From positions 1,729,879 to 1,793,878 of the forward strand of contig MU057801.1 of the NCBI GenBank assembly GCA_013265495.1: DNA of 64,000 nt. Direction: 5' to 3'. Below, piece after piece: positions 3,880-46,157 of this stretch. The position numbers and the translations under genes were made by a program. Origin of the DNA: Vicugna vicugna. Its lineage: Eukaryota. The number at the start of each line of letters is the position of its first letter. Position 1 is the stretch's first letter. The notes below the pieces were generated by a model, which did no database searches, was not told where the DNA came from, and worked only from the letters and a program-made list of their open reading frames with translations.

Positions 3880-4740
3880 CACCTGGCAAGGTGAACGGCG
3901 CTGTCTCTTAGCGCCACGCTTTTCAAGCTACATGGACACCTGGCTTTGCACGAGAGGCTCCGGTGAAGTCGCCGTCGGCACCCGCGCAGCGCGCTGTGTC
4001 CGGAGCTTCCCTCGCTTCCGCCGGAACCGGAGCTGCGCCCGGAGCACGCGGGGCTGGTAAGCTGTCTGGCTCTGACACAGAACCCCCACCGTCCCCGGCG
4101 GCCACGGCCCCCCTGCCCCGCCCCCGACCCGGGCCCCCCCCGCAGGGCGGGTCCTGGTGCCGGACAGGGCGGAGGGACTCTCGGGCCGGAGGCTCGGTGT
4201 GNNNNNNNNNNNNNNNNNNNNNNNNNNNNNNNNNNNNNNNNNNNNNNNNNNNNNNNNNNNNNNNNNNNNNNNNNNNNNNNNNNNNNNNNNNNNNNNNNNN
4301 NNNNNNNNNNNNNNNNNNNNNNNNNNNNNNNNNNNNNNNNNNNNNNNNNNNNNNNNNNNNNNNNNNNNNNNNNNNNNNNNNNNNNNNNNNNNNNNNNNNN
4401 NNNNNNNNNNNNNNNNNNNNNNNNNNNNNNNNNNNNNNNAGGCCCACCCCTCCCCCGCGTCTGAGCAAGGCTCTTCTTCCACGTGCTGGTTTTCAGATCA
4501 ACTTGTTTTGTCAGCTATACACCAACCCCTTCTCGCTCCTGCTCGGCAGTATCAGGGCACACGTGCGTGCCTTATGCTGGGTGCCATTTTCCTCAGACAG
4601 TGAGATCAAGGACGGGGAAAGCCAGAAGTGCCCGCCGGAGACGGGGGTGGAGGGGCGCCCAGAAGCAGCCGCGCTGCATCCCGACCGCGTGCGGGGGCAC
4701 GGGGCCTACCCACGTGTACATTCATGGGACTACACGCCAG
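3880..4740. promoter_or_regulatory. CpG island (interrupted by a gap); possible promoter of a + strand non-coding transcript
   Basis: Dense CpG, GC boxes and ETS-like ccggaa; candidate donor CTG|gtaagc after 4056. Confidence 0.6.
4202..4439. other. Assembly gap (N run)
   Basis: Ns inside a GC-rich island. Confidence 1.
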
Positions 4741-14380: not shown

Positions 14381-15369
14381 CCAAGGAGACCCTGGAAAGC
14401 TGGGAACTTGTTCTGTTACTTGCGGTCCATCCAATCGTGGTTGTGAAACCCCCGGGTCTTTGAAAAGGTGCTAAACGTTCTCATGATTAGAGAGGGCTTA
14501 ACAGAGTGGCATGGCATAGAGCCAGGGAGTCATGCCTCAAACTGCACCGCTGATTTTTGTCTGGAGCCAGCGACGGCCATTTTCAGAGATCCACGCTGCT
14601 GCTGGCAGCACAGAGACACGCAGCACTGAGAGTCCACGGGCGCTCACCCGGCAGCTACACGCCAGGGGTCGCGCCCGCCCCACGGCCTTAATGCCCCGCT
14701 GTCCTCCAGGCACTCTGAGCTGCAGTCCGGGAGGGCCTGCGAACACCCACTGCTGCCCGGTTAATTTCACTCCGGCGGGGAGGCCCGGCAGAGGCTTTAC
14801 GTGGCCCCTAGGAAACGGCAAGCTGACATCTGAGGGGGCATCCTGGCTGCCCCTTCCAGGTTCAAAAGCCCGAGAAGCCCTCACTTGAGTCAGAACAACT
14901 CCAGCCACTTAACGAAAGTGGCAACAAGGTGCTGAGGGATGTCGGATGGCTGCCAAGTCCGTACCCAGCTCACGCACACCAGGGCAACTGCAAAGTTGTC
15001 CCCTGACTACTTTCGGAGGGAAAAAAATGGGTCCCAGAAAAGAAGCAAATGTTTGTCTTTGGGTGTGTTCACTCTGCCTCAAGGACGTGTGGATCATTTG
15101 TTGGGTTGGGACCTGCACAATTGTCTTGAGATGCTGGGCAGGTGGGGGTGGGAGAAGCTTGGAGCTGCACGGCCCTCAGTGGTGGGGGGAGCAGAGGACC
15201 CTGGAAAGATGAAGAAGGAAGACGAGGCCGTTGAGAAAGGCGGGTGAGGAGGGGTGGGGGGGAGAGGGGAAGGAGGGGGAGCAGGGATGGAGGCAAGGGA
15301 GCAAGGGTGGAAAGTACTAAACTTCCCCAGTTCAGCAGGCCTATGGAGATGTGTTTCCTCCCCTGAGAG

Positions 15370-15740
15370 CACTGTTCACCTGTCCCTGTGGCTTCTTTGC
15401 TGAACTAACTCATCCATCAGGTCTTAGCTTGAACCTCATCCCTCCAGAGCCCCTCCTGGTCTCCCCAAATCCAGGCACATGGCTTCTCCTCTGGGCTCCA
15501 CTAACATCTCGTACTCCTCCCAAAGTCTTAGTCCCACTCCGTGCAGTTTCCGGTTTGCTGGACGGCATCCCCTCTCAGGCTCCAAGCCCTGAGCAAACGG
15601 AGAGGAGGGGGCTCCTTCCAGGGCGGCATCTCCAGCGTCTACACCACAGCGCCACCTCCAGCGTCTACACCACAGTGCCACCTCCAGCATCTACATACAC
15701 CACAGCGCCCTTATGACATGGAGTCAATGAGCGCATGAAC
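15370..15740 (+). mobile_element. L2 3' fragment
   Basis: actcatccatcaggtcttagcttgaacctcatccctccagagcccctcctg...catctccagcgtctacaccacagcgcc resembles the L2 3' end. Confidence 0.55.
15630..15710. repeat. Tandem repeat, 26-bp unit x3
   Basis: ctccagcgtctacaccacagcgccac repeated three times; the third copy has a 4-bp insertion. Confidence 0.9.
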
Positions 15741-15845
15741 TTTTGGGTGGATTACCAACAAATACGTAATGAATCATGAATTACTAACCTAATAAAATTT
15801 AATTTTTATGCTTATTATTTGGGATGAAAATGCTCTTCATCGTGA

Positions 15846-15940
15846 CTAAATGTCTACACAGGTAGTGACAGTCTGATTCAGGTCACTTGGACAAAATTGT
15901 GTCAAAACTGCACCACAACTTGGCAACTTCCAAATCACTG
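15846..15940 (-). CDS. Candidate terminal coding exon (exon C) of an unrecognised gene: (S)VIWKLPSCGAVLTQFCPSDLNQTVTTCVDI*
   Basis: Acceptor tttgtcttatcag| (NAGNAG); phase 1 continues the exon B frame to TAG; ATTAAA at 15803-15798 follows. Confidence 0.35.
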
Positions 15941-16212
15941 CTGATAAGACAAACTCAGGCTTGTCTATGTAGTTCAGGTTTTTCCTCAACCAGGGAAAAG
16001 CAGGCCGTGGGTCCGCGCATGTGTGCACCGCGCTGCCACGCCGGGCGCTGGGAGGGCAGGCCTGCGGGACGGGGCGACTTTTATTCCTTCCTTTACGACC
16101 TGTGAGACTTAGCCATGTGCCTTTTACTGTCAATAAATGTTTTCTGAATTGAAACCCAGATCTAAGTCTCTGAAACACAAGATTTATTTCATTAAAAATG
16201 TATATATTACAG

Positions 16213-16440
16213 GGAATAGTGAGAAAAACACAAACTTCGAGCGCAGACGGACGGGGTTCAGGTCTGCTACTTGCCAGCTAGAACCATTGGCAAGTTGCTT
16301 AACTTCCACGAGCTTCAGGTTCACATTCTGCATCTTGGAAATAGTAGCTTCTACTTTGTAAAAGTAACTGGCATGGGAAAAGTGATTGCTAAGGTGTGTG
16401 GACTTTATTACGCAGCACATCATGTGTAATTATTGTCATT
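16213..16440 (+). mobile_element. MIR SINE
   Basis: ggggttcaggtctgctacttgccagctagaaccattggcaagttgcttaacttcc... Confidence 0.65.
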
Positions 16441-17325
16441 GTTAACATTGGTAACTTGATGGTCAAGATATTCTGACTTCGAGGAGTCCACTGCACTTTC
16501 CCTCATTGTACCTGCAGGATTTGGACGTGCAACCCACTCTGCTGGTCCCTGGGAGGGCTGAGAAGACCCGCACGGGTCACTCAGCATAGAACAGATGAGG
16601 ATGCTGGGCGCCGAGGGTCCTGGTCACTAGGGAGCACCAGGTGTCAGCTGCGGGGTTTCTGCACCGTCCTCCAGCTCCAGGGTGGGGAGCAGGGAACATG
16701 GCACCCTTCCTGGCGAGCCCTGGTCCCTGCGCATCCTGCAGACTGGCTCAGTGTTTCACCCCCACTTGGCTGGGGTGAATAGGAAGTAACCCCCCCATAT
16801 AATGAAACTGCCATTCTTGGCCACTGGTTCAAGCGCAGACTTGCCTGCACGCGTCTCCGCTTCTCCCAGCGACAGGCTGCCCCAAGGGCCCCTTTGGTGA
16901 TGCCTGCACTTCAAGATCAGGCAACATTTGGAACTGAAGACGTCAAACCCTACAAGATTTTTTTTAAAGAGGAAAATGAAGGTGAACGTACACATAGGTA
17001 ACATTCTGCCAGAAAGTAAGTCCAAACCCTTGGCCGATTCCATCATTGGAAGAAACAAGTCAGGGGAGGCTAACAGCAAAACCCATCCCCACAAGGGCCT
17101 TTCTGTTCCGTTCCTGACGGCAGCCTCGCGCAGAACCTCCACGGCCGTGGGGGCAAGTTAATGGTGTCTTTTGTGAAGCCGCTCTGAGAAGGAGGTCCCA
17201 GGCTTGGGGCTGGCATCCCATCGTCTGTGTGGGCTGCAAAGCCAGAGACAAACGTGCACATCTCACCCCAGGCAGAGGGTTCACTTTTCCTTTGATTTGA
17301 ACAAACAACTCGTCAGGATACTCAC

Positions 17326-17437
17326 AGAAAACACTCATTGAGATTTGATCAAAATACGACATAGTTGACTTAATCCCATCACTACAAACGGAGCAGAGCG
17401 ATATAATCATTTGATAGACAACAGCCTGGATACGTGC
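17326..17437 (-). CDS. Candidate internal exon (exon B, 112 nt): ARIQAVVYQMIISLCSVCSDGIKSTMSYFDQISMSVF
   Basis: Acceptor ccatgttttcag| and donor TCT|gtgagt; only the phase-0 frame is open across the whole exon. Confidence 0.45.
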
Positions 17438-18199
17438 CTGAAAACATGGATTATGTTTATAAATAATAATTATAATAAATAATTATTCAGTTTTACTGTG
17501 TGTTAGGGTTTGCTTGCTGTTTGAACATTGCAAACATGATATAAAGCTTAATTTTCTGCTCGCTACGTACCAGGTTCCCTGACATCCGTGTCATATTTCA
17601 CCATATGATTTTATGTTACACTTTCCATTTCTCATCATCCAGAATTTGTGCTTCTGGTTTCTCCTTATCCAAAAATTTTAGCTTTCACTGATTTCTAGCA
17701 TTCCCTCTACTGTATACGTATGAACAAAATTGTCTTTTTCCTCAATGATGAAAAGAACTTTTTTACTCTTTTTCGCAAAAATAACATGCTTACATGGCAA
17801 AGCTGAGCTTTTTGTCTATATGTGCAATCTTTTTAAATTTGTGGGTTAACAAAAAATTGTCTTTATTAGAAGAATCAAACTGTGCTTTCTCATGTCAGTT
17901 GAAGTGGTGACCCCAGTGCATTGCTCTGGGACAGGGAATAACCTTCCGTATGAAAAATAACTAAGCCAGTCCACATGGTGGTGAGCTGCAGATCCCTCCA
18001 CCTCCCTGCTGCACGTGAATCTGCGCCTCGTAATTACTGAGCGCAACAATCCCGGAGGGTTTTGTTTGTTTGTTCGTTCATTTGGTCCTTTCGCAGCCAC
18101 AGCGGGCTCCGCACATCTCCAGGTGGGCCAGCAAAGTGTGAGACCAAAGCTCCAGGTCCCGGACCCTCAAGCCCGCGGCCACAGTAAGAGCAGCCTGCT

Positions 18200-18630
18200 T
18201 GGCAGGTGAGACCCTCCCCCTTTCTGGGCACACTGATTGGACCAGGCAGAAGCACGTGACCCAGGCTGGGCCAATGAGCTGCTTCCGTTTGCAGCCCACG
18301 CAGCCCGCGGGGGGAGCGCGGTCTGGAGCCGCAGGTCCGCCTCCCGCCTGCAGGTCCGCGTGGGCGACAGGCTGCAGGGGTGCTGCGCTCACGAGGGGCG
18401 GCGGATCAGAGGCGTATCCGCTCCCCGGGAGGAAGTGTGAGCCGCCCAGGGAGGCGGGGCAGCAGGGCTGAGGGGCACACTGGACGTCCCGGGCCCCCGT
18501 CGGCGCTCGGCGCTGCGGCTCGTCCCAGCCTGGAGTTCGGGCCCGCCTCCTGGTGGCCAGGCCCTCCTCTCCTTCCCAGAGCTCCCCACTGTCGCTTCTG
18601 CTGTTGCTAATCCGAGGAGCCTTGACTACA
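18200..18630 (+). mobile_element. ERVL LTR16-like LTR, GC-shifted
   Basis: tgattggaccaggcagaagcacgtgacccaggctgggccaatgag hallmark; ends cttctgctgttgctaatccgaggagccttgactaca. Confidence 0.6.
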
Positions 18631-19349
18631 AATCACAGTATTAATATTTTTTTGAAATGCAGAGATTAAAAAAAGGTTGTAAGATTTAAAAATGATTAAC
18701 AGCTGGCCTGGGATTTGAGGGGTCGATGTTGTGGAAGTAAGAAGACCGGGAGGGGTTTTCTCTTGACGCATTCGAGCTCCAGTGCAGCCGCACTGACAGC
18801 GGCTCTGTGCCACCACCCTGTGGGGGTGCGTGCCACTCAAAAGATGAGGCATCACAGAAAACTTCTTTTGAAACCGATTATATGTTACCATGTAGAGCAT
18901 CCAAAAATAGAGACCACTGCCGCCTTCCGGGTTTGTATATTGTGGTTTTGCAGACGGAGGAGATGGGAGAAGCATCTCCAGGGAACGTGTTCTGCATCTG
19001 CCCAGGACCTGGCTGTGGACAACCTCACAGAGCAAGGACGCCACGCCGCCCTTGGTGTGAAGGTGCTCGTCGGCCCCGCTCTGTCTCAGTGAAGCAGGGC
19101 CTGGCTCTCCCTTACAGATGGACACAGCCCTGTAAGGACCAGGGGTGGGTCACGGAGACACAGACTTATTAGAGAAAGAACAGAAACGTTATGAGCTTGG
19201 CACTCATCAGAGAATCCTGGACTTTGGTCCTAGAGGCGAAGGTAACAGGTTCATAAAAAAGTGATCTTTGAGGCAGCCATCTAAAAAAAACAAAAACAAC
19301 AAAAAATCAAAAACAAAAAAACAGCTTTTTTTTTCAGTACAAATGTAAA

Positions 19350-20230
19350 TGTTCACTTGCGCGACGCGGCCTTCAAACGCTATTCCAGATGTTTCCACTC
19401 CGACACAGAGAGGGCCTCCGCCACGCAGGACAGCTGCCCCCGGTGCCATCGAAGCGCAGAGCCGGAAGCCTGGGCCGCCCCGGAGGCGGCAGGCCTCGCG
19501 GGGCCGTCGGGCTGTGTCCCCTGGCCGGTCGGCCACACCTGCACACGTCTGTTGGTGAACGTACATCTCACCAATAAAACAGCTGGCTAATAGAAGGTAT
19601 TTGAAGGCAATTTAGACTAAAAGAAAACCAGGGGCCTGATGTGTGTAAATACTATCACGTGGCTCACGTAACAGGAAACTCTTACCTGAAGAACACACTT
19701 TTTTATTCTCACAAAATTCTCGAATTGCTCGGATACGCGTGGTCCTAAAGAGCCCTCGGCCGGGCCGCTCCGCCGGCGCGGCTGCTGGGCGCCGGCTCGG
19801 CCTGGCAGCGCCCGCTCCGTGTCGGCTCCGCCAGGCAGGCCGCGCGGCGCGCCTCGGGGCCCAGAGGCCCTGCAGCCCCGGGTCGGCGGTTAGATCCGCG
19901 TGACGGCGAGCCTGGGGGCGCAGGGGGCGCGGCGCGGCGTTTGCTCTTGGCGCCCCCGGCCCCTCGGCCGCACGGGTGGCGGGGCCGCCTGTGTCTGAGC
20001 TGACACTTGTGCCGTCTTCCTCCTGCTCCGTCTTCATCCGAGTTCCCGGCAGGACGGTGACGGCGCCGCCGCCCAACCGCGCGGAGCGCAGGGCGCGAGG
20101 GCAGCGAGTGGAAGCGTCTGTGTGCAGACCGTCTTCCCGTCCGCGCTCCCCCCATTCAGCGCCGGCGGCCTCCGGGCGGAGCAGCGTCTGGCTGCTTCTC
20201 CACTGATGAATTTTCCAAACGCCGTCAGTG
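19350..20230. promoter_or_regulatory. CpG island; probable promoter/first exon of a minus-strand transcript
   Basis: Very dense CpG at 19740-20180; strong minus-strand donor at its left edge. Confidence 0.7.
19686..20037 (-). CDS. Candidate first coding exon (exon A), ATG MKTEQEEDGTSVSSDT... to donor CAG|gtaaga
   Basis: ATG at 20037-20035, frame open for 117 codons + 1 nt; near-consensus donor at 19686/19685. Frame assignment is uncertain. Confidence 0.35.
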
Positions 20231-22149
20231 GCCGGCAGTTAAATGTCCGTCCGCAGAATTATAGCAAATGCAGCTTGGATCACCGCTGTTTTTTTTCTTT
20301 TTCTTTTTCCAAACTTGCGTGTTTACCCTTCTTCACCTTGATTCCCTAGAAGAGTCAAACGTCGGGCACTGAGGTCGAGCCCGAGGAGGTGCTGCCCCCA
20401 TGAGCTTTCTGCTGGTCGTGCTCAAGGTCAGTGTCTGATATTTCCTTTGTGTGACGCAGCGCCTCTTAATAAAACCACAAAGAAGGGTTTGCCCTGAGCT
20501 TTAAGAGGTCCAGGCAGCTGCAGTGTTCCGTGGAGAGAGTATTATTCTATTTGCATGCGTCTGGTGAGAAATAATTGTGACGCTGAGGCTCCCAGCACCT
20601 CTGAGATGGAGGGAGGGGCGCCCCCGCCGGACGACGCAGCGGAAGGCACTTAACGCCATGCTGTCTTGCTCGTACACCCTGCTCTCCAGAAAGATGCTGT
20701 AAATTAAATAATGGGCACAGGTAGCGCCTTGAATTCCAGGAAAATCAAAACGTTGCAGCTTTGGGGTTTGATTTTTTTTTCATCTCACAGTATCTAGTGA
20801 ATAAAACCAGCTTTTCCTTTTTTAACTAATAAGCAAGCTTGTCATCTTTGGAGGAGGCAATCTCTGCCATTTGGCGCAGACGAGCGCTGGTCAGGAACTT
20901 CAGTAAGTAAGCTGAGCGTCTGATGGTTACACACGAAAAGGCATTTGACTCCAAACAGTGTGTCGCGCTGCCCAGCAATCCAGCCTCCACTAAATAACCA
21001 AAATACACAAATTGAAATAAAGTGAAATTCTTTTTCCAGAGTTAATGAAAGGTTCCTGTTTGTGAATGTTGGGCTTTGAAGTCCAGCCCTCTCCGACAGC
21101 ACCAGGAATCCACTGGTGATTTATGAGTATTTGGACAAGTGGCCACCAGAGCCCTGCCTGGTGGACAGCCGACCTGCCCTACCTATCCGGGGGGCTCCCC
21201 ACAGCCCGGCCTCCGGCTCCCTGCCCGCAGCCCCACCTGGCTGGGCCCCTGGTGGGGGCCGAATGGGCAGCGCGGTCTGGCCTGGCCTCCTCCCTCCTCT
21301 GGGCCCCCTCGGCTGCCCCCGCCCTCACACGCTGCTCCCTCCCTGCCCCTCTGCCGTCACCCCGGACCAGACAAAGCCCACTTTGCCTGCGTGACCAGGG
21401 TCAGGGTTGGACTGGAGAGGCTCTGCCAGACCCTTCCAGGATTTCCCAGGTGGACGGTGGCTCACTCCCAATCCACAGAGTGGCTGGGCTTCCTCCCCGT
21501 CTGTAAGCGCGCTGCCCGTCCGAGGAGAGGACCCGGCCTGGAGCGGTTCAGACTGGCAGAAGCCCTGGGGGCCAGAGGGCCCCACTGAAGCGAGAGCCCC
21601 CGGCGGCCTTAGGGGCTGGAACAGTCACCGTCACACGGGTGGCGTCCGAGGCAGGGCCTTGGCGTGGAGGCGGGCTGGGCTCGGAGGTGGCCTGCACTGG
21701 AGAGTCCGAGCGGCCCCCCCCCCGCCCCCTCTGCGGCTCACAGAGCAGAAGCACGAAGCCCACCAACCGCGGTGCGCTTGTCAAGGCCCGTATGTGCCCC
21801 TGGGTTGCTTTCTTTCCTTTTGGTAACTTGCTTGGAGGCCTGCTGGTTCGAAGACCCGTAAACGTGGCCTGGCACTGAGGAGACACGGAACGACCCCCTT
21901 TGTCCTAAAGACGACTCTCCTGTCTTTTCAGCCTCTGTCTGGCTTTCCGTGTGCCCGTGGGGCCTCTGACCTCGGCCAGCTGGCACCCGGGGAACATTTT
22001 TGCCCGTCTCCCTTTGGTGACGAGGCTTCCAGATAGAAAGAACGCCCAACACAAGGCCCGTCGTCCAGGGCCCCGCGGTCCCACTGGAGATAAAAGAATA
22101 AGCGTTAAAGAAGCGCGTGCAAGGCCGCAGAGGCCCCGGAGGAGGGCAG

Positions 22150-29500: not shown

Positions 29501-30110
29501 ACCACACGAACGTCAGAGACCGTGATCACTGCTGCTGCAGTCGTAGGGCAGGGACGGCGTGATTCCTAAGAATTTCAACCGGAGAGAGCCCTCTGCAAGG
29601 AAACAGGCAGCCTAAGGACCATCAGCTCGGGGGTGATGGGAGCCCCGGGGGGAAGCCGTCACCGGGCAGTCGGCGCTGTGACCACAGGACAGTGTGGCTG
29701 CCTCGCCCCTCACTCTCCTCGCTGCTGCTTGGTGCAGATTTAGGCTCTGCTGTCTCTGCATGGTCAGAAACATCCGTCCTTAGAAGGTCTCTCTGATGAG
29801 ACGGGCCTGGGTCCACGCAGGTCTCTTTAGTGGGACAGGGGAACACGAAGGCCCGGGTGGGGGAAGGGCATGTCCTCACTCCAGGAATCAAGCCCCGGCC
29901 CACCAGGGGAGAGTGGACGGTGCCCCTCGTGCTGGGCCTGGCCGCCCCTCCAGATCAGATGACCCAGACTTTGAGGGGGGCCTGACTGGGAGACCACCTC
30001 CTGGGGCAGGGATCAGGCTTCCTGAGGCAGAGAGTAGACTTCCACGGGGGTACTTCAGTAGTGAGGGGTCCAGAGAGCCCCTCCCCTCCTTTCCCCCTCC
30101 CATCCCCACC

Positions 30111-30574
30111 NNNNNNNNNNNNNNNNNNNNNNNNNNNNNNNNNNNNNNNNNNNNNNNNNNNNNNNNNNNNNNNNNNNNNNNNNNNNNNNNNNNNNNNNNN
30201 NNNNNNNNNNNNNNNNNNNNNNNNNNNNNNNNNNNNNNNNNNNNNNNNNNNNNNNNNNNNNNNNNNNNNNNNNNNNNNNNNNNNNNNNNNNNNNNNNNNN
30301 NNNNNNNNNNNNNNNNNNNNNNNNNNNNNNNNNNNNNNNNNNNNNNNNNNNNNNNNNNNNNNNNNNNNNNNNNNNNNNNNNNNNNNNNNNNNNNNNNNNN
30401 NNNNNNNNNNNNNNNNNNNNNNNNNNNNNNNNNNNNNNNNNNNNNNNNNNNNNNNNNNNNNNNNNNNNNNNNNNNNNNNNNNNNNNNNNNNNNNNNNNNN
30501 NNNNNNNNNNNNNNNNNNNNNNNNNNNNNNNNNNNNNNNNNNNNNNNNNNNNNNNNNNNNNNNNNNNNNNNNNN
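30111..30574. other. Assembly gap flanked by pyrimidine-rich low-complexity sequence
   Basis: N run with (cctcc)-like flanks. Confidence 1.
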
Positions 30575-32962
30575 CCTCCCTCCCCTGTTCTCACCCCTCT
30601 GTACCCCACTCCCTCCCTCCTCTCCCCACTCCCTTGCCTGTGTCTCCTGAGAAAACCCTCAATCAGTTACTCAAACCAGGATCTCCACCTCTGACTTTCC
30701 TTCCAGGAGCCCAGCTGAGACAACTTTCTGCATCAGGAAGAGCTGCCTTTCATTCTGAGACGTGAGGACTGGCCCTGCCTCCTCTCTGACATTGTGACTT
30801 GTAACCTGAAGTCACCCCAGGGCTGTCAGACATGCTCGTGGTTGTGAGGACTCTGAAGAGGTGATGTGGTGGAAGTGCTGGAAGAAATCAGTGCGGCCTC
30901 ATGTTTGTGGCGCAGAGTGGGGACCAAGCTGCTCCTCGGTGGCAGGTGGCCTTGGGGGCCAGTCCCTGGGAAGCCAGGCGTGAAGGAGGAGCCGTCTGCA
31001 GGGACTGACACGGGAGAGTCAGGACCGAGCCTTCCACCTGCCGCCCTGACTCAGGGCCCAGCGCCCGGAAGGAAGCTGTTGGCCGGAGAACTCCCGGCTA
31101 CGTTGCCAGGAGCCCAAAGCTAGAGCCCACACCCCCACACGCGGCCGGCAGTGGGCTCCCTGGCCCACCAGGCTCTGACGCCGCCATTGGACTGCGAAGT
31201 TGGCAGAACGATTGTCACTCCTGGTGATCACACCAGCCCCGCAGCTTGGTCTCACCTGCCTTGCCAGGTTCCCGCGGGCAGAGCGCTGCTGACAGGGCGG
31301 GTGGCGCTGGGCGTGGGACGCCTGTGGATGCAGACCTTGCCCCCACCCCCACGTCCATGCTTTACAGCTGCCCGGCCAGTCATGAAGGGATGACACCAAT
31401 CAAATAGCGTTGTTTTCTTTATATGGTGCCAAAAATGGCATCTCCTTTTATGTTTTGTTCAAAACTGGCCCATGAATTCGCAACAATGCGTCTCCTTTGA
31501 ATGTATGTGGATTCACATCGCCAGCAGCAGCAGCGGAAAAGATAAGTATTTTGACACGTGTTCTTTTTAAATTCTGAAGATCTGGGATGCCAAAGGCAAA
31601 ATGCGCTCAGAAACGGATGGGAACATGTGACGCCAACATGCGCGTTCTGGCCTCTGGGCCTGATGCTGCTGCCCGAGCACACTGTCCTCTCTCCTCTGTC
31701 CTCACTGCCCCCTCCTCACCAGAGCACCCCTCACGTCAAGACTTCGAGAAGCACCGTCTGGTCATTCCACCCTGAACACTCCCCCCTCGTCGGTCACCTG
31801 TTAGCTGCGCTGCACTGGGTATTTAAGAACACCACAGAGGGAAGGCGCGAGCGGCGGGGCCGGCCTCTCAGGACCCGCTCAGACCTGCCCAGCACGTGCG
31901 GTGATTCCGGGTGATTTCTTCTCGCGCCACCTGACCTGATGCTGCGGCTGCGTGTGACCGTGTGAAACGTGGTCTCGGAAGCCGACTCAGGAGACACTCC
32001 GTGTGCGTCTCTCCTCCCTGCGCCCGCGCCTTCCTCATGTCACGCGTTGTCCTTTGTACAGGGGTCTGTGTCGTGGTTTCCAGCTGTAACAAGCTGTTCG
32101 GGGGCGGGGGTCCAAGCACAACGTGCGCCCAGGAGGCCCCCGGAGGGCGGAGAGCTGAGGGGGAGGGCCGGGGGCTCTCAGGGGTGACCAGGCAGGTCAC
32201 TGCTGTGGGCGACCGGAGCTGACTGCTGCGAAGCTCCGGAAAGCGGTATGAAACACGCGTCTCAGTTTCCCAGCGGGAGGGGCTGCGGCTGGGGAGGCGG
32301 TGCTCCGCCCCCTCAGTCACTGGTCACCGGCTGTCGCCGGCCACTGCTCTGCTCTCAGCCACCTCTCGCGGTTCCAGGGGGAGACCCAGTAAGGAGCTGC
32401 AGCCGTCGGCTGCTGGAGATTCTGCCCGAAGGTGACCCCCCCGAAGGAAATGGCGAGCATGTCAGGACCTGCTACAGGTGCCTCTGGCTGAGAAAAAAGC
32501 TTATAACGAAAATAAAAAAATATGACTGGCTCCAAGATGAGGTGTTGGGGGTAAACACGGAGCCTTCTGTAACGCATGGAGCTGGCGGTGGTCCGCGGCT
32601 GCCGACAGGGCGGGGGAGGCGCGGTCCTGCAGCAGGCATCCTACGTCCGTCGGGCTAGAGGACGTCTCTGCAAGCCTGCGCGCCAGACCGCCTACAGCAC
32701 AGAAGGCCTTTTACACCGTCACTTACACCCCTGTCGGCCTCAGCACCTTTAACACACGTGTGTTTGCGTCTGTGTGTGTATAGTCCTGTAACAGGCTGAT
32801 TGTGAGAGCTCCACACAGAAAATTTCCCCAGATTGTCACAAGGAAACGGACAAGCACACACTGAGGACGGCAAAGGGTGACACAGTGACTCCCCACCCTT
32901 GGCGGGGGCGCTGTTGGAGAGTGGAGCGTGAGCGCTGCAGGGCAGTGAGCGAGGTGAAGGGC

Positions 32963-33452
32963 NNNNNNNNNNNNNNNNNNNNNNNNNNNNNNNNNNNNNN
33001 NNNNNNNNNNNNNNNNNNNNNNNNNNNNNNNNNNNNNNNNNNNNNNNNNNNNNNNNNNNNNNNNNNNNNNNNNNNNNNNNNNNNNNNNNNNNNNNNNNNN
33101 NNNNNNNNNNNNNNNNNNNNNNNNNNNNNNNNNNNNNNNNNNNNNNNNNNNNNNNNNNNNNNNNNNNNNNNNNNNNNNNNNNNNNNNNNNNNNNNNNNNN
33201 NNNNNNNNNNNNNNNNNNNNNNNNNNNNNNNNNNNNNNNNNNNNNNNNNNNNNNNNNNNNNNNNNNNNNNNNNNNNNNNNNNNNNNNNNNNNNNNNNNNN
33301 NNNNNNNNNNNNNNNNNNNNNNNNNNNNNNNNNNNNNNNNNNNNNNNNNNNNNNNNNNNNNNNNNNNNNNNNNNNNNNNNNNNNNNNNNNNNNNNNNNNN
33401 NNNNNNNNNNNNNNNNNNNNNNNNNNNNNNNNNNNNNNNNNNNNNNNNNNNN
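32963..33452. other. Assembly gap flanked by purine-rich sequence
   Basis: N run. Confidence 1.
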
Positions 33453-33832: not shown

Positions 33833-36183
33833 TTCAGAATGTGGTTTTGGGGATTAAATGAAGCAACAGAGCTCCGTCCACCCTGCCCCGTGGCATCGAT
33901 CGACGCTGATTGAAAAGTGCCTCTTGAACAGAAGTGTGTTTGATTTCAATGGGGCTGCTGCCAGCCACGCCCGCTGTCCGTGAGGACTTTGCTGGCAGAA
34001 CTCCAGCTCCGTGACCGATCCGGCTGGTCAGAGATGAAATGCGGATGGCAGCCACGAAACGGTATGAGATGTCTTAAGTTTAACCCAAACCGGGGGCAAG
34101 AACTGTCTCCAAAGCCAGAGAAGCAGGACTCAGCAGATGACCCAGAGGACAAGAAGGAAAGGCCATGGTGTAAAGCGAACAATCAGTGGCTGAAAGCTAT
34201 TAAGTTCACTCTTCTAGTTCAAAGGGTCTGAAGTGGCAATTTGTCAGGGAGCTGTTGTCACTTTAGATGCCCTGCTTGCTCTCTTTGAAGCCCTGATTGA
34301 CTGCAGGAGGCTGGCCAGATCCTTCTGGAGGCAGGATTTCCACAGCTGAACACACTTATGTCATAGTAAAGACAACTATTCACAAATGTCATCGACAAAA
34401 GGGGAAAGAGTGTGAGTTTAGGGAGGAAACTGTGCTCAGAGCGGTCCAGGTGATGGGCGCCGTGACTCTGCACAAGGCCGCACAGCCAGATGGACAGTGT
34501 CAGCCACTCGAGTGTGTTGATCCGAGGCTGGAGAAAGTTCTCCGTTGGCGCGCCAACAGCGAGACAGACTTCAGCTTGCAAAGGATCATTTCTCTGCGCA
34601 AACAACCAACCGAGAGTGATCAAGCGAATTAACACGGTACCATCTCTCCAGCCAGCAGAGGTGGGGGCTGGAAGCACATCTTTTGCCAATTGTCTCGGAA
34701 AATAGGTGCAAAGGCACGTGTGCTGCTGGGAAGCAAGGAAAGGCTTCAGCAGAGACGAAGCAAAGGAAAATCGGCCAGTGTGAGTGAGCGGGGCAGCGAC
34801 CCTGCCCCGACACAGACTTCCCTCTAGAAATGCACGCACAGCATGGAGAGTGGGTGGGCGGAGCCCTGGGAAGCATGTTCACATCAGGAAGAAGCATTTG
34901 CAAATTAATTTGCTATCTGAGGTCCAGAGCCTCCTTATTGCAGGTGGAAGTGTGCCCATCGGTGTTTGCAGACGGGGCGTGCACGGTGTGGTCCAGCCCA
35001 AGTGTCCGCAGGGAAGGTCAAACCAAAAGGTTCGGGCTGACAGGGACACAAGCTGTCCTCACAGCCCAGTCCCTTCCTGCACTCTCACACACCCTGTGGC
35101 CCTGGCCACAGCAGGGTCCCAGGTAGAAGTGTGGCGGGTGGTGCAGTTGGTAGAGACGGGAGCCGAGGGTCCCCGAGGAGAGTGCCAGCGGGGTGGACCC
35201 CTGCCAGCAGCTGGGGGCCAGATGTCCCTGCTCTGCAGCCATAGAGAGTCACCACGGCAGGAAAAAAGTGATGTCTGCGTGCAACGTGTGGGAACCAGGC
35301 TAGGCGCGAGGTTGAGGGCAACTCACCACAGGCAGGGAGGGACAGATGGGGAGGAGGTGAATCCAGGAAGGGTCTGGAGGGCCGGGCTGTGGGCTTTCCA
35401 CAGCCACGCCCCCAAGGACAGGAAGCCAGGCAACCACACGTGTGGAGCACAGGCGCATCCACGCCCAGTTGGGGCTCTGTGTTCAAAGCCCCCCGGGGCA
35501 TCTCGCCCCCCCCCCCGATGTGAGCGTGCCGGCCGTGTGAGCGCCCGGTGGTCTGCGTTTCCTCCCACGGGTGTGTGTCATGGGGCTCCAGCGGCACCTG
35601 CTCTCCCAGAATCAGCCAAGAAGTCAGCACCCACCTGAGATTCGTCCGAATCACTCCGACCAAAGGAAATAAACGGCCACGTGCATCAGCATCAGACGTC
35701 AGGTGACCTGAAGCGAGATCCCGTTAGCAGGCTGACGCGATATTCGGGGGAGGAGGGGAGGTTCTGATGCGGACAAGCTCCTTGGTGCTCATTCATTCCG
35801 GCTGGGAAACACCTGTCTTCCAAGTCAGAGAAGGCGATGGGACATGTTCTTCCTGGAGTCTTCGCTCTCTTTTAGGCAAGGAAGTGTCTTATACTGTGAG
35901 GCCAAGACACCTGGACGGGGTTTTAAAGACGGCAACTGACGGATGCACACAGACCAGCAGATGAGTGTGGCCCGACGCTCCGCACAAGGCTCCCCATTAA
36001 AGAAGAAAGCGGTCACGTCACCCAGGTTAAAAACGTAAAGCCCTCACGGGATCAACGGAGACGCCTTTTGTTATTATTAACTTAATTGTGATAAAATACA
36101 CACAAAGGTGGGAACACATGAAATACAGATAAAATGTGCCATCTTAGCCATTCTGAGTGTGCGGTTCAGTGGCACCAGGCGCG

Positions 36184-43170: not shown

Positions 43171-44399
43171 GGAGTTCACGGTTCCACTCTTGAAACAAGA
43201 GTGTCAGAGTTTTCCGGGTTTCTTTTCTGTGTGTGTCTTTTCCTCCAGGACACGGCGGAGGCGCCAGTCCCTCGGGAGTTACAGCTGGGCGCGCACTGAG
43301 TGATGGAGATTATCTTTCCCCTCTTTTTAATCATGCACCTAAATACTGGTGTTTCTTAAACTGGGAGCCAGAAAACAAGGAAAAGGAAAGCATTCCTACG
43401 GAAGAGAATCCAGCGTCAGCTCGGAACGCACACAGGGAGGCATTTTCAGAAGCCAGCCACTCCTTCCCGGTTGAGACCGGAGCTGCCGTCTTGACAGCTC
43501 GCGTTTCCCGGAGCGAACCGCTTCCCCGCTGGGAGGCTTGTCGCTAAAACTGCCGGGGTCAGTGCGCCGCCTAACGGTCATCGCACACACTGCAGCCCAC
43601 TGGGAAAATGCGGGGGGAAGCCACGGAAATTGCCTTTAGCAGCTGTGCTCTGACTTGAGTCAGGCAAGGCTCTTAGGATCCTAAAATTTGCTATTTATCC
43701 TAAACACCCGTTCACTTTTTATGGAAAAAGTATTATCCATGGCTTTCAAGCTCTGTCCTTTACTAGACCATCTATCGAATTAGTTAAGAAGTCCCAAAAG
43801 AGCCTGCTCAAGTCTATTTCTCTTCTTTAGTTACTGGTGTGTATTTGAAAGGTCTGTCGCAGGGGCAGAAGGACGGCGCCCCTCAAAGCAAACTAGGCCT
43901 CCCGGAGGCAGAAGCAGCCCCAGTGCGGGGGCTGCCCAGGGGGCCTCACTCTCACGGAGGACACCTTCAGAGCTGACAGCGCCACTTCTGGGACAAGCAC
44001 ACACGTGCGTCCTGCAAGACGCCCTCAGTAGGATGCACGGTCACTTCTCTTACTTTCCTGCTCCCCAATGGAACACACTGGGGACATCCAAATTAAGTGA
44101 CCTTCAGCAAAGTGCCTAATACTTTTCAGTGCATCAGGGCCTAGAGACGCACACAGACCCTGAGACAAGGTCCACTTCAAAGACATCTAAAGAGACATGA
44201 CACGTGAGCCCAAGCGCGGCTGGGTCTGGGCTGGGGAAGCAGCCCAGAAGGACGTCATTCAGACAAGGGATGCCATTTGAAATTGGACCCTGGACTGGAT
44301 GCCAGCGCCGCGTCAGCGCTCAGCTCTCTTGCTTTGGCGGTAACGCCTGGCTGTGTGAGGAAGTTCGTGGTCTTGGGGGACACACACCTCGACTGCAGC

Positions 44400-45220
44400 T
44401 GTCGGGGCTGCACCCGCCCAGGGCCCCGGGCGTGAGCTCGGGGCCGGAGCCCTCCCCGCTGCGCCGGCGCCCCGAGCCCGGGCCCTGCTCCCTGCCCTCG
44501 CCCGCGCCCGCCTCGCACCCTGACGCCTTGACGTCTGTGTCAGCACGGGGGAGACGGCTCTTCTCCCGCCTGTTCTGCTGACCACCCTCCTCCCAGGGAT
44601 GCCCCGAGGATCAAAGCGGGCAGAGCCGCGCAGGCAGGGAGGCGCGCGGGGAGACGGCGCGGAACCCGGGCCTGGCGAGGGCGTGCGGGCCGCGAGGGCG
44701 CGTGTGCACGCCCCCAGAACGGGAGTCGGGGCCGAGGACAGAGCCAGACCTGGTCACCCGCGCCCTGTGCGCCTGCGGCCGCCCTCGGTCCCCTGCACGC
44801 ACGCGGACTTTGCAGCCACCGGCCGAGGCGTCGCAGAGGGCGCGGCGTCCCGGGGAGAGCGGGGCTCCCGCGTGCGCGGCGACGCCCCAGGCCAGCGCGG
44901 CGGGCCAGCCCGTGGGCTTCTCCGTCCCGGACGCGCCCGAGGGATCGCTGCAGGAGCGCGGCGTCTGGAACATTCGGGCGTGGGCTGGCGGCGCCTCCCG
45001 TCCACTGCCCGCGCGCGCAGCCCTCGGCCTGTGTGTGCACCGCGCGGGCCTCGGGGTCCTCCCGCGTGTGTCGTTCAGCCCCGCGCGCGTGCCCCGGGGC
45101 GGACGCGGCCCGGGCGGCGCGGTGACTCCCGGTGACTCCTGCAGCCGTGAACGCGGCCCTCGGCGCGCGAAGCCCCGCCGCGGCCTGTGACGCGGGTCTG
45201 GGGCCGGCTGCCGGCATCGC
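44400..45220. promoter_or_regulatory. Orphan CpG island, partly built on a MIR relic
   Basis: Extremely CpG-dense, no convincing exon; MIR-like layout at about 44950-45070. Confidence 0.6.
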
Positions 45221-46157
45221 TGTACAGTCTGTTGTATCTGTTACATTTGTGAGCCCCACACGGTTGTGTTGAATTTAGTTCAGATAGAGAATAACGATTT
45301 TCTACAGAACACTTCTAACAGTTTATCATTTAATGAAACAAGATAGTGTACAGGGGAGAGTCGGGGGGGCAGAAGTGAGGGGCAAGTGGGGACGGGGGGG
45401 GGGAGGAGAGGGAACGAACCCAGCCCTTGCCCCACGGCCGGCACAGCGAGTGACCAGACTCAGGAGTGGCCACTGGTCGCCCCCACCTGATGGCGCTGCA
45501 TCCCTGGTGGTCCTTGCTCATGTGACAGAGGACCTTCCGGAAAGTCCACGCGCACGGGGCTCTCTCCCACCTGCCGCCGCCAAGAGGAAACATCCGCCCC
45601 ATCTGTCCATCACAACCACTCCCAGATCCCAGGGGGTGCCTGACCATGTTACCCTTGCTTTGCTTCCGGCCTGTCTTGGGATCTGTTGCTTTCTCAGCCA
45701 AAGTGGAATGGGTGAGAATTCTGGCCGTGGCCCGGCCGCCCGTGCAGGAGGGCGGTGGGGGTCACAGGCCTGGCTGAGTGCAGATCTGACCCCACCTTAC
45801 TTTACAGCTGGTATGATGACCGTCATCAAGATGCGCTGCCTGGAGCCCGGTCTAACCTCGGTCACCGCTTGGCTTTACTCTTGTCTGGCAGCTCAGCCAG
45901 GAAGGTGTCCAGGTCCGTTCGTCCATCCTTCTGTAGCTCGAGGTCCTGGGCAGGGTGGGAGGGACCAGCCAGACCCTTCGGGATGTGTTGGAGCCGGCGG
46001 TCCCTTTGCCGAGTGCACGGACCTCTGTCACCTCTTTCAGTAGCATGTAAGTCTGCCAGCATTTGACGTGCGGCGTGTGGTGTTTGGACTTTCAAACTTA
46101 GAAGAGATATCTGACTAAAAAGGAAATAAATAAAGTCCCATCAGAAATCTCATTTTT

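Follow-up and report, generated by a model that had tools for sequence, protein, structure and literature searches.

What is transcribed from the CpG island near 20 kb in the 64,000-nucleotide stretch of the Vicugna vicugna genome analysed here (GenBank assembly GCA_013265495.1, contig MU057801.1, positions 1,729,879 to 1,793,878; hereafter the window), and does the product encode a protein? An initial annotation, made by reading the letters alone, had placed here an unrecognised minus-strand gene of three exons (A, B and C in what follows) with a spliced frame reading as a small cysteine-rich peptide, and had offered a poorly annotated small-protein gene, a decaying unitary pseudogene and a spliced long non-coding RNA (lncRNA) as possible identities. 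Our analysis favors the last of these, even though the transcript follows an exon chain other than the one proposed. The locus is best explained as an ordinary spliced RNA gene, transcribed by RNA polymerase II and most likely non-coding, a reading to which we assign a probability of roughly 0.78.

Structure of the transcript

RNA runs containing 5-17% of the sampled words (X1, X2, X3 and X18) were compared with positions 15000-21000 of the window. X1 and X3 belong to one study and are labelled reproductive system, X2 belongs to a second study, and the contigs of all three are 95-99% identical to the window and hence derive from a close relative. Such contigs carry neither strand nor reliable ends, and rare forms can be missed among them. 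In each of the three runs, one contig covers 19686-20282, at a depth of 73.7 in X1, 161.4 in X2 and 38.5 in X3, and ends 6 letters further. All three runs, and thus both studies, contain a joint between 19686 and 17233, and the skipped segment is bounded by CT..AC on the plus strand and hence by GT..AG on the minus strand. A second joint, between 17092 and 16948 (GT..AG after a shift of the cut by 1), is present in X2 (161.4) and X3 (38.5) and absent from X1, whose contig stops at 17097. The third, between 16847 and 16627 with one letter in between, was seen in X2 (161.4) and X3 (7.8), and the extra letter would be accounted for if the relative had a substitution at 16846, in which case the exon ends are 16845 and 16626. 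A single X2 contig of 984 nt contains all four exons (E1-E4, Table 1), and depth ranges from 38 to 161 over the exons as against 0 to 11 over the introns. In the relative, E3 also carries a 3-nt insertion behind 16908.

Exon A and its donor are therefore real, as the initial annotation had it, but the donor joins 17233, and none of the three runs contains a joint at 17437, 17326 or 15940, the borders that had been proposed for exons B and C. Likewise, the suggestion that a minus-strand gene starts in the island near 20 kb stands for the transcript supported by RNA and fails for the downstream exons attached to it. Based on these data, transcription of the minus strand would begin at about 20.3 kb, where the island has its upstream edge, and E1 would be spliced from its strong donor to E2, then to E3 and finally to E4, in agreement with the option of a spliced lncRNA.

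Table 1. Features mapped at the locus. Positions are those of the window, and in splice motifs the slash marks the exon border.
Feature	Position	Length	Strand	Basis and remarks
E1 (exon 1)	about 20288-19686	about 603 nt	minus	X1-X3 contigs; 5' end approximate; proposed exon A lies inside
Intron 1	17234..19685	2452 nt	minus	GT..AG; 3/3 runs; donor CAG/gtaaga, acceptor tttgcag/; contains proposed exon B
E2 (exon 2)	17093..17233	141 nt	minus	pieces 17092-17233 (X2, X3) and 17097-17233 (X1); ctttgcag/CCC, donor CTT/gtgggg
Intron 2	16950..17092	143 nt	minus	GT..AG; X2, X3
E3 (exon 3)	16845..16949	105 nt	minus	piece 16847-16948; donor position +/-1-2 nt; tcttgtag/GG, donor CAG/gcaagt
Intron 3	16627..16844	218 nt	minus	GC..AG in window; gcaagt...ccctag; X2, X3
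E4 (exon 4)	16492..16626	at least 135 nt	minus	minimum extent; X2 contig ends at 16492
215-codon ATG open reading frame of spliced E1-E4	16577..20037	215 codons	minus	this genome; ATG at 20037, stop ending at 16577 in E4
Proposed exon A, donor	last exon base 19686		minus	sequence; CAG/gtaaga
Proposed exon B	17326..17437	112 nt	minus	ttttcag/ before 17437, TCT/gtgagt after 17326; without RNA support
Proposed exon C	15798..15940		minus	tcttatcag/ before 15940, TAG at 15848-15846, ATTAAA at 15803-15798 then T/GT-rich; without RNA support
CpG island	about 19400..20300			composition; covers exon 1 and the first part of intron 1
Intron of separate antisense spliced RNA	18206..18953	748 nt	plus	inside intron 1; joint reported between 18196 and 18945

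Over the four 200-nt windows that span 19400-20199, G+C content is 0.52-0.81 and the observed-to-expected CpG ratio is 0.80-1.18. The locus is single-copy, both in the window and in the assembly, as had been thought from the letters: a blastn comparison of 15700-20400 with the window itself gave 0 other matches, and in the 2.03-Gb assembly no second copy was found, with only four 40-nt matches of simple sequence besides the locus. An exact 29-base pattern at the E1 donor, when sought in the metagenome_contigs collection, was found in 0 records.

As for the 3' part, low-depth contigs (3-11) cover 16213-16573 and may carry the transcript to about 16213, and an AATAAA at 16188-16183 of the minus strand is a candidate poly(A) signal. 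A donor at 16512 (CAG/gtacaa) was considered as the end of E4 and rejected, as the X2 contig continues colinearly for 20 nt beyond it. Splice sites were scored with a crude matrix whose frequencies are approximate. On this scale the sites in use after the first donor are weak, with acceptors at 7.2, 1.5 and 2.9, a donor at 3.0 and the GC donor of intron 3 at 5.8, and the sites proposed for exons B and C, which are not used, score above them (acceptor 8.6, donor 5.5 and acceptor 7.4). Among the contigs of high depth, that of X1 goes no further than the E2 donor, that of X3 ends at the E3 donor and that of X2 at 16492, and in X3 the depth falls from 38.5 over E1-E3 to 7.8 at the E3-E4 joint. Contig breaks at the E2 and E3 donors, together with weak sites after the first donor, suggest alternative splicing of the downstream part. 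According to PMC7242645, lncRNA genes are enriched in GC-AG junctions (human 3.0%, mouse 1.9%, as against 0.8% for protein-coding genes), and such junctions are linked to weak sites and to more alternative splicing.

Coding potential

In this genome, the spliced E1-E4 transcript holds an ATG open reading frame (ORF) of 215 codons, which crosses all three junctions and is nested in an open frame of 282 codons. When the exons were shuffled one by one with their dinucleotides preserved, 215 codons were reached in 43 of 1000 shuffles and the 282-codon open frame in 26 of 1000, and the length of the ORF is marginal as evidence of coding. Compared with the window, E1 of the relative shows a loss of 1 letter at 20136, a loss of 4 at 19934 and a gain of 2 at 19824/19827. 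Since no gaps beyond these 7 letters were recorded for that piece, the 215-codon ORF undergoes a net change of -2, a frameshift. In addition, the frame that enters E2 acquires a stop in the relative, where a change at 19722 replaces CGA by TGA, and no ATG follows before the donor. Because the ORF is broken in the relative, we infer that the RNA is non-coding.

Substitution patterns were also examined. Among the listed differences, 16 fall inside the ORF, 11 of them non-synonymous and 5 synonymous, in a list that lacks another 4-6 differences of E1 and the majority of those in E2-E4. Divergence from the relative is 38/977 (3.9%) over the exons and 11/380 (2.9%) over E2-E4 alone, compared to 95/2836 (3.3%) over ten non-exonic pieces, where overlaps between runs were counted separately. 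The exons, in other words, evolve as fast as the introns and show no exon constraint.

Searches for homologues gave a similar picture. Searches with the E1 part of the 215-codon ORF, at near and at longer lengths, and with E2 in the frame of this ORF, at longer lengths, returned no homologue. None of the 150 ORFs of at least 75 aa between 1 and 25 kb, a set that includes all frames of E2 and the ORFs holding exons B and C, matched a Pfam family. Across the whole window, no Rfam family reached its gathering score, which argues against the host gene of a small RNA (snoRNA or miRNA) and against a known lncRNA family. No conserved ORF emerged for the transcript from the conservation comparison, which covered ORFs above about 100 codons, and the transcript gives no protein-family signal either.

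The proposed downstream exons and their peptide

When 15700-20200 was re-read, all the motifs listed by the initial annotation were present on the minus strand at the positions it had given, its peptide was reproduced by translating the three pieces, and the frame was indeed open across both the A-B and the B-C junctions. What did not hold up was the judgment that the result is protein-like and unlike the noise of surrounding ORFs, since counts of donor chains and of exon candidates show the pattern to be no more than chance would give. The frame of exon B is part of a stop-to-stop ORF at 17060-17482 (140 codons) and that of exon C part of another at 15846-16277 (143 codons), both of which run past the proposed exon borders, and in the G+C-rich 64-kb window, stop-to-stop ORFs that reach 120 codons or more number 117. 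On its two strands, 111 candidate internal exons equal or exceed exon B in score at both ends, 44 of them with an open frame. Strong donors, defined by a crude-matrix score of at least 9, are likewise 44 in number in the window, and 16 of these (36%) lead within 6 kb to one or more three-exon chains that reach the thresholds of the proposed model, where a chain was counted if its frame was open throughout and it ended in a stop and an AATAAA or ATTAAA.

The RNA data point in the same direction. Depth is 0 over 17234-17488, which includes exon B, in X1, X2 and X3, because pieces that end at 17233 or start at 17489 account for all that was recorded in bins 17211-17411 and 17412-17612. The bins over 15603-16205, which include exon C, have a depth of 0 in the same three runs. 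Exons B and C are unused in the sampled RNA, on evidence that is strong but not absolute.

With regard to the peptide, the frame of exon A is devoid of ATG codons from its upstream stop to the donor at 19686, and the earliest ATG of the A-B-C chain falls inside exon B. A full HMMER pass over 1.84 billion representatives with the 37-aa peptide of exon B returned one match, at an E-value of 2.4e-4. This was dismissed as spurious, as the protein, 1257 aa long, is one of tandem repeats in which an agreement at 7 of 17 residues recurs many times. Paralogues of the exon B peptide and of the 30-aa exon C peptide were sought in the window's own assembly, and at E<=1 each found only itself. A small cysteine-rich protein, lacking an in-frame ATG in exon A, a credible homologue and a paralogue, thus finds no support, and neither does a decaying unitary pseudogene, for which no parent or orthologous protein could be detected. 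The sequences read as exon B, within intron 1, and as exon C, downstream of the gene, owe their splice-like motifs and their open frames to chance, and the locus does not produce the cysteine-rich peptide.

Discussion

The reading of this locus as a non-coding spliced RNA gene had to be weighed against three others. That the transcript is instead a protein-coding messenger RNA, whether for a young lineage-specific protein (encoded by the 215-codon ORF or by one of about 93 codons) or because E1-E4 are the 5' exons of a gene with conserved coding exons further downstream, below 16492 or beyond the region compared with RNA, is in our opinion unlikely, albeit the most serious of these alternatives. 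The longer ORF does cross all three junctions and its length is seldom reached by shuffling, and contigs of high depth that end at the E2 and E3 donors and at 16492 leave room for downstream exons that were not seen. However, that same ORF is frameshifted and interrupted by a stop in a relative about 96% alike, its ratio of non-synonymous to synonymous changes is 11:5, exons and introns diverge equally fast, and neither a homologue nor a Pfam family could be assigned to it. If the 215-codon ORF were taken specifically as a very young, species-specific protein born de novo on an lncRNA, the odds would be slimmer still, and we regard this as quite improbable. It is also improbable, though somewhat less so, that the RNA is confined to the relative, and that the locus of the species sequenced is silent or that its CpG island gives rise to unstable promoter-associated transcripts only. 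All RNA evidence is in fact 95-99% alike and none of it identical to the window, and X18, the run labelled with the window's own species, placed nothing, although it was too small to be a test; against this, the CpG island, the strong donor and all the other splice sites are intact in the window. Because promoter island and splice sites are intact, we infer that the same RNA is expressed in the window's own species.

The alternative that receives the least credit is that the A-B-C model holds in a tissue that was not sampled, where it would encode the small cysteine-rich protein or a decaying pseudogene. Its motifs score higher than the sites actually used, its frame is open over both junctions, and contigs reveal presence rather than absence. 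Nonetheless, exons B and C have neither depth nor joints in three runs out of three, two of which are labelled reproductive system, while E1 stands at 38-161; the +2 insertion at 19824/19827 falls inside the frame of exon A in the relative; chains of equal quality follow 16 of 44 strong donors; and the model is further burdened by the missing in-frame ATG, by an exon B match limited to 7 of 17 residues of a repeat protein and by the lack of paralogues. We consider the A-B-C model largely refuted.

Several points do weigh against our preferred reading of a non-coding transcript. The RNA comes from a relative other than the window's own species, and X18, which consists of raw reads labelled with that species and amounting to 256 million letters, had 0 reads placed, a sample of a size that makes it no test. 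The splice dinucleotides are the sole basis of the strand assignment. The 215-codon ORF is somewhat longer than expected by chance, and the insertions and deletions that break it in E1 could be assembly errors in the G+C-rich window instead of differences between species. The ORF of about 93 codons, which starts in E2, lies outside the conservation comparison, most E2-E4 differences being unlisted. Lastly, as contigs stop at the E2 donor, at the E3 donor and at 16492, coding exons may lie below 16492.

With these points in mind, the preferred interpretation places the locus among spliced lncRNAs with a CpG-island promoter, either as an intergenic lncRNA or as one member of a sense-antisense pair. 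In the relative the transcript is longer than 200 nt, as the 984-nt contig attests, and its introns read GT-AG, GT-AG and GC-AG in the window. It resembles such lncRNAs in having its first exon in a CpG island, several exons with canonical splicing, weak downstream splice sites with signs of alternative splicing, an overlapping antisense spliced RNA (described below), no conserved ORF, exons that diverge at the rate of introns and a single-copy locus, and it differs from them in that the 64-kb window revealed no protein-coding gene as a partner. There is also a likeness to lncRNA genes with GC-AG introns, given the short intron of 218 nt with CAG/gcaagt...ag borders and the signs of alternative splicing, although the bias described in PMC7242645 concerns the first intron and here it is the third. 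The GC donor was read in the window only, as the RNA of the relative reveals the exon junction and not the dinucleotide of the donor. De novo or orphan ORFs on lncRNAs offer another parallel, since the 215-codon ORF is intact here, lacks homologues and is broken in a species closely related to this one; its substitutions look neutral (11:5), its length is only marginally beyond chance (43/1000), and its translation is hypothetical. A unitary pseudogene would likewise be a transcribed and spliced locus without an intact conserved ORF, but in this case no residual similarity to any protein or family was found. Any function of the locus would most plausibly be exerted in cis, through transcription or promoter activity and not through a protein.

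The significance of these findings lies mainly in annotation, as a spliced transcript that is probably non-coding, together with an antisense partner, can be placed at a CpG island within a stretch devoid of recognisable protein-coding exons. They also illustrate how reading by eye can fail: the first donor was real, and the best-looking downstream motifs, open frames included, were not the ones chosen by the cell. Were the 215-codon ORF to be translated, the locus would become a candidate case of de novo gene birth.

Neighboring transcripts and other features of the window

Intron 1 contains signs of a second spliced RNA, on the plus strand. The joint reported between 18196 and 18945 has a depth of 6.6 in X3, with a matching loose end in X1, and moving it by 9 nt yields a canonical intron, CAG/GTGAGA...TTTTGCAG/, with 7 of the 9 moved letters being the same on both sides. 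The exons of this RNA would end at 18205 on one side of the intron and, on the other, run from 18954 to about 19590, and contigs covering 18950-19588 end beside a plus-strand AATAAA at 19573-19578. A plus-strand spliced RNA inside intron 1 is thus indicated. Just upstream of E1, a contig at 20315-20962 has a depth of 23-25 in X1 and X3 and is absent in X2, and because of this difference between runs it is probably a separate transcript. Here the plus strand has an ATG at 20401 and, after 9 codons, the motif AAG/gtcagt. On the opposite side of the locus, a low-depth X1 contig over 15000-15100 indicates transcription about 700 nt beyond the ATTAAA assigned to exon C.

Elsewhere in the window, a Pfam search of 377 stop-to-stop ORFs of at least 75 aa, plus 39 shorter plus-strand ORFs between 33.4 and 38.2 kb, identified no family above threshold. 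Two matches fell below it, Cathelicidins at 18.6 bits (cut-off 21) and Keratin_B2 at 16.3 bits (cut-off 28.7). The former lies in a 111-codon plus-strand ORF at 34297-34629 and covers profile positions 49-89. This lead was not upheld, as no cathelin match was found among PDB sequences and the 20 cathelicidin matches of the assembly are all on other contigs (C8709, C7119 and C6026), and the match is probably due to chance or is a decayed relic. Three runs of N are present in the window, at about 4100-4400, 30100-30600 and 32950-33450, and represent either gaps of the assembly or letters that were withheld. A second and stronger G+C peak was seen at 44000-45300 (G+C content 0.69 in 44001-45000); it is likely a further CpG island or promoter, without an exon that Pfam recognises, and ORFs of at least 200 codons are open there in all six frames.

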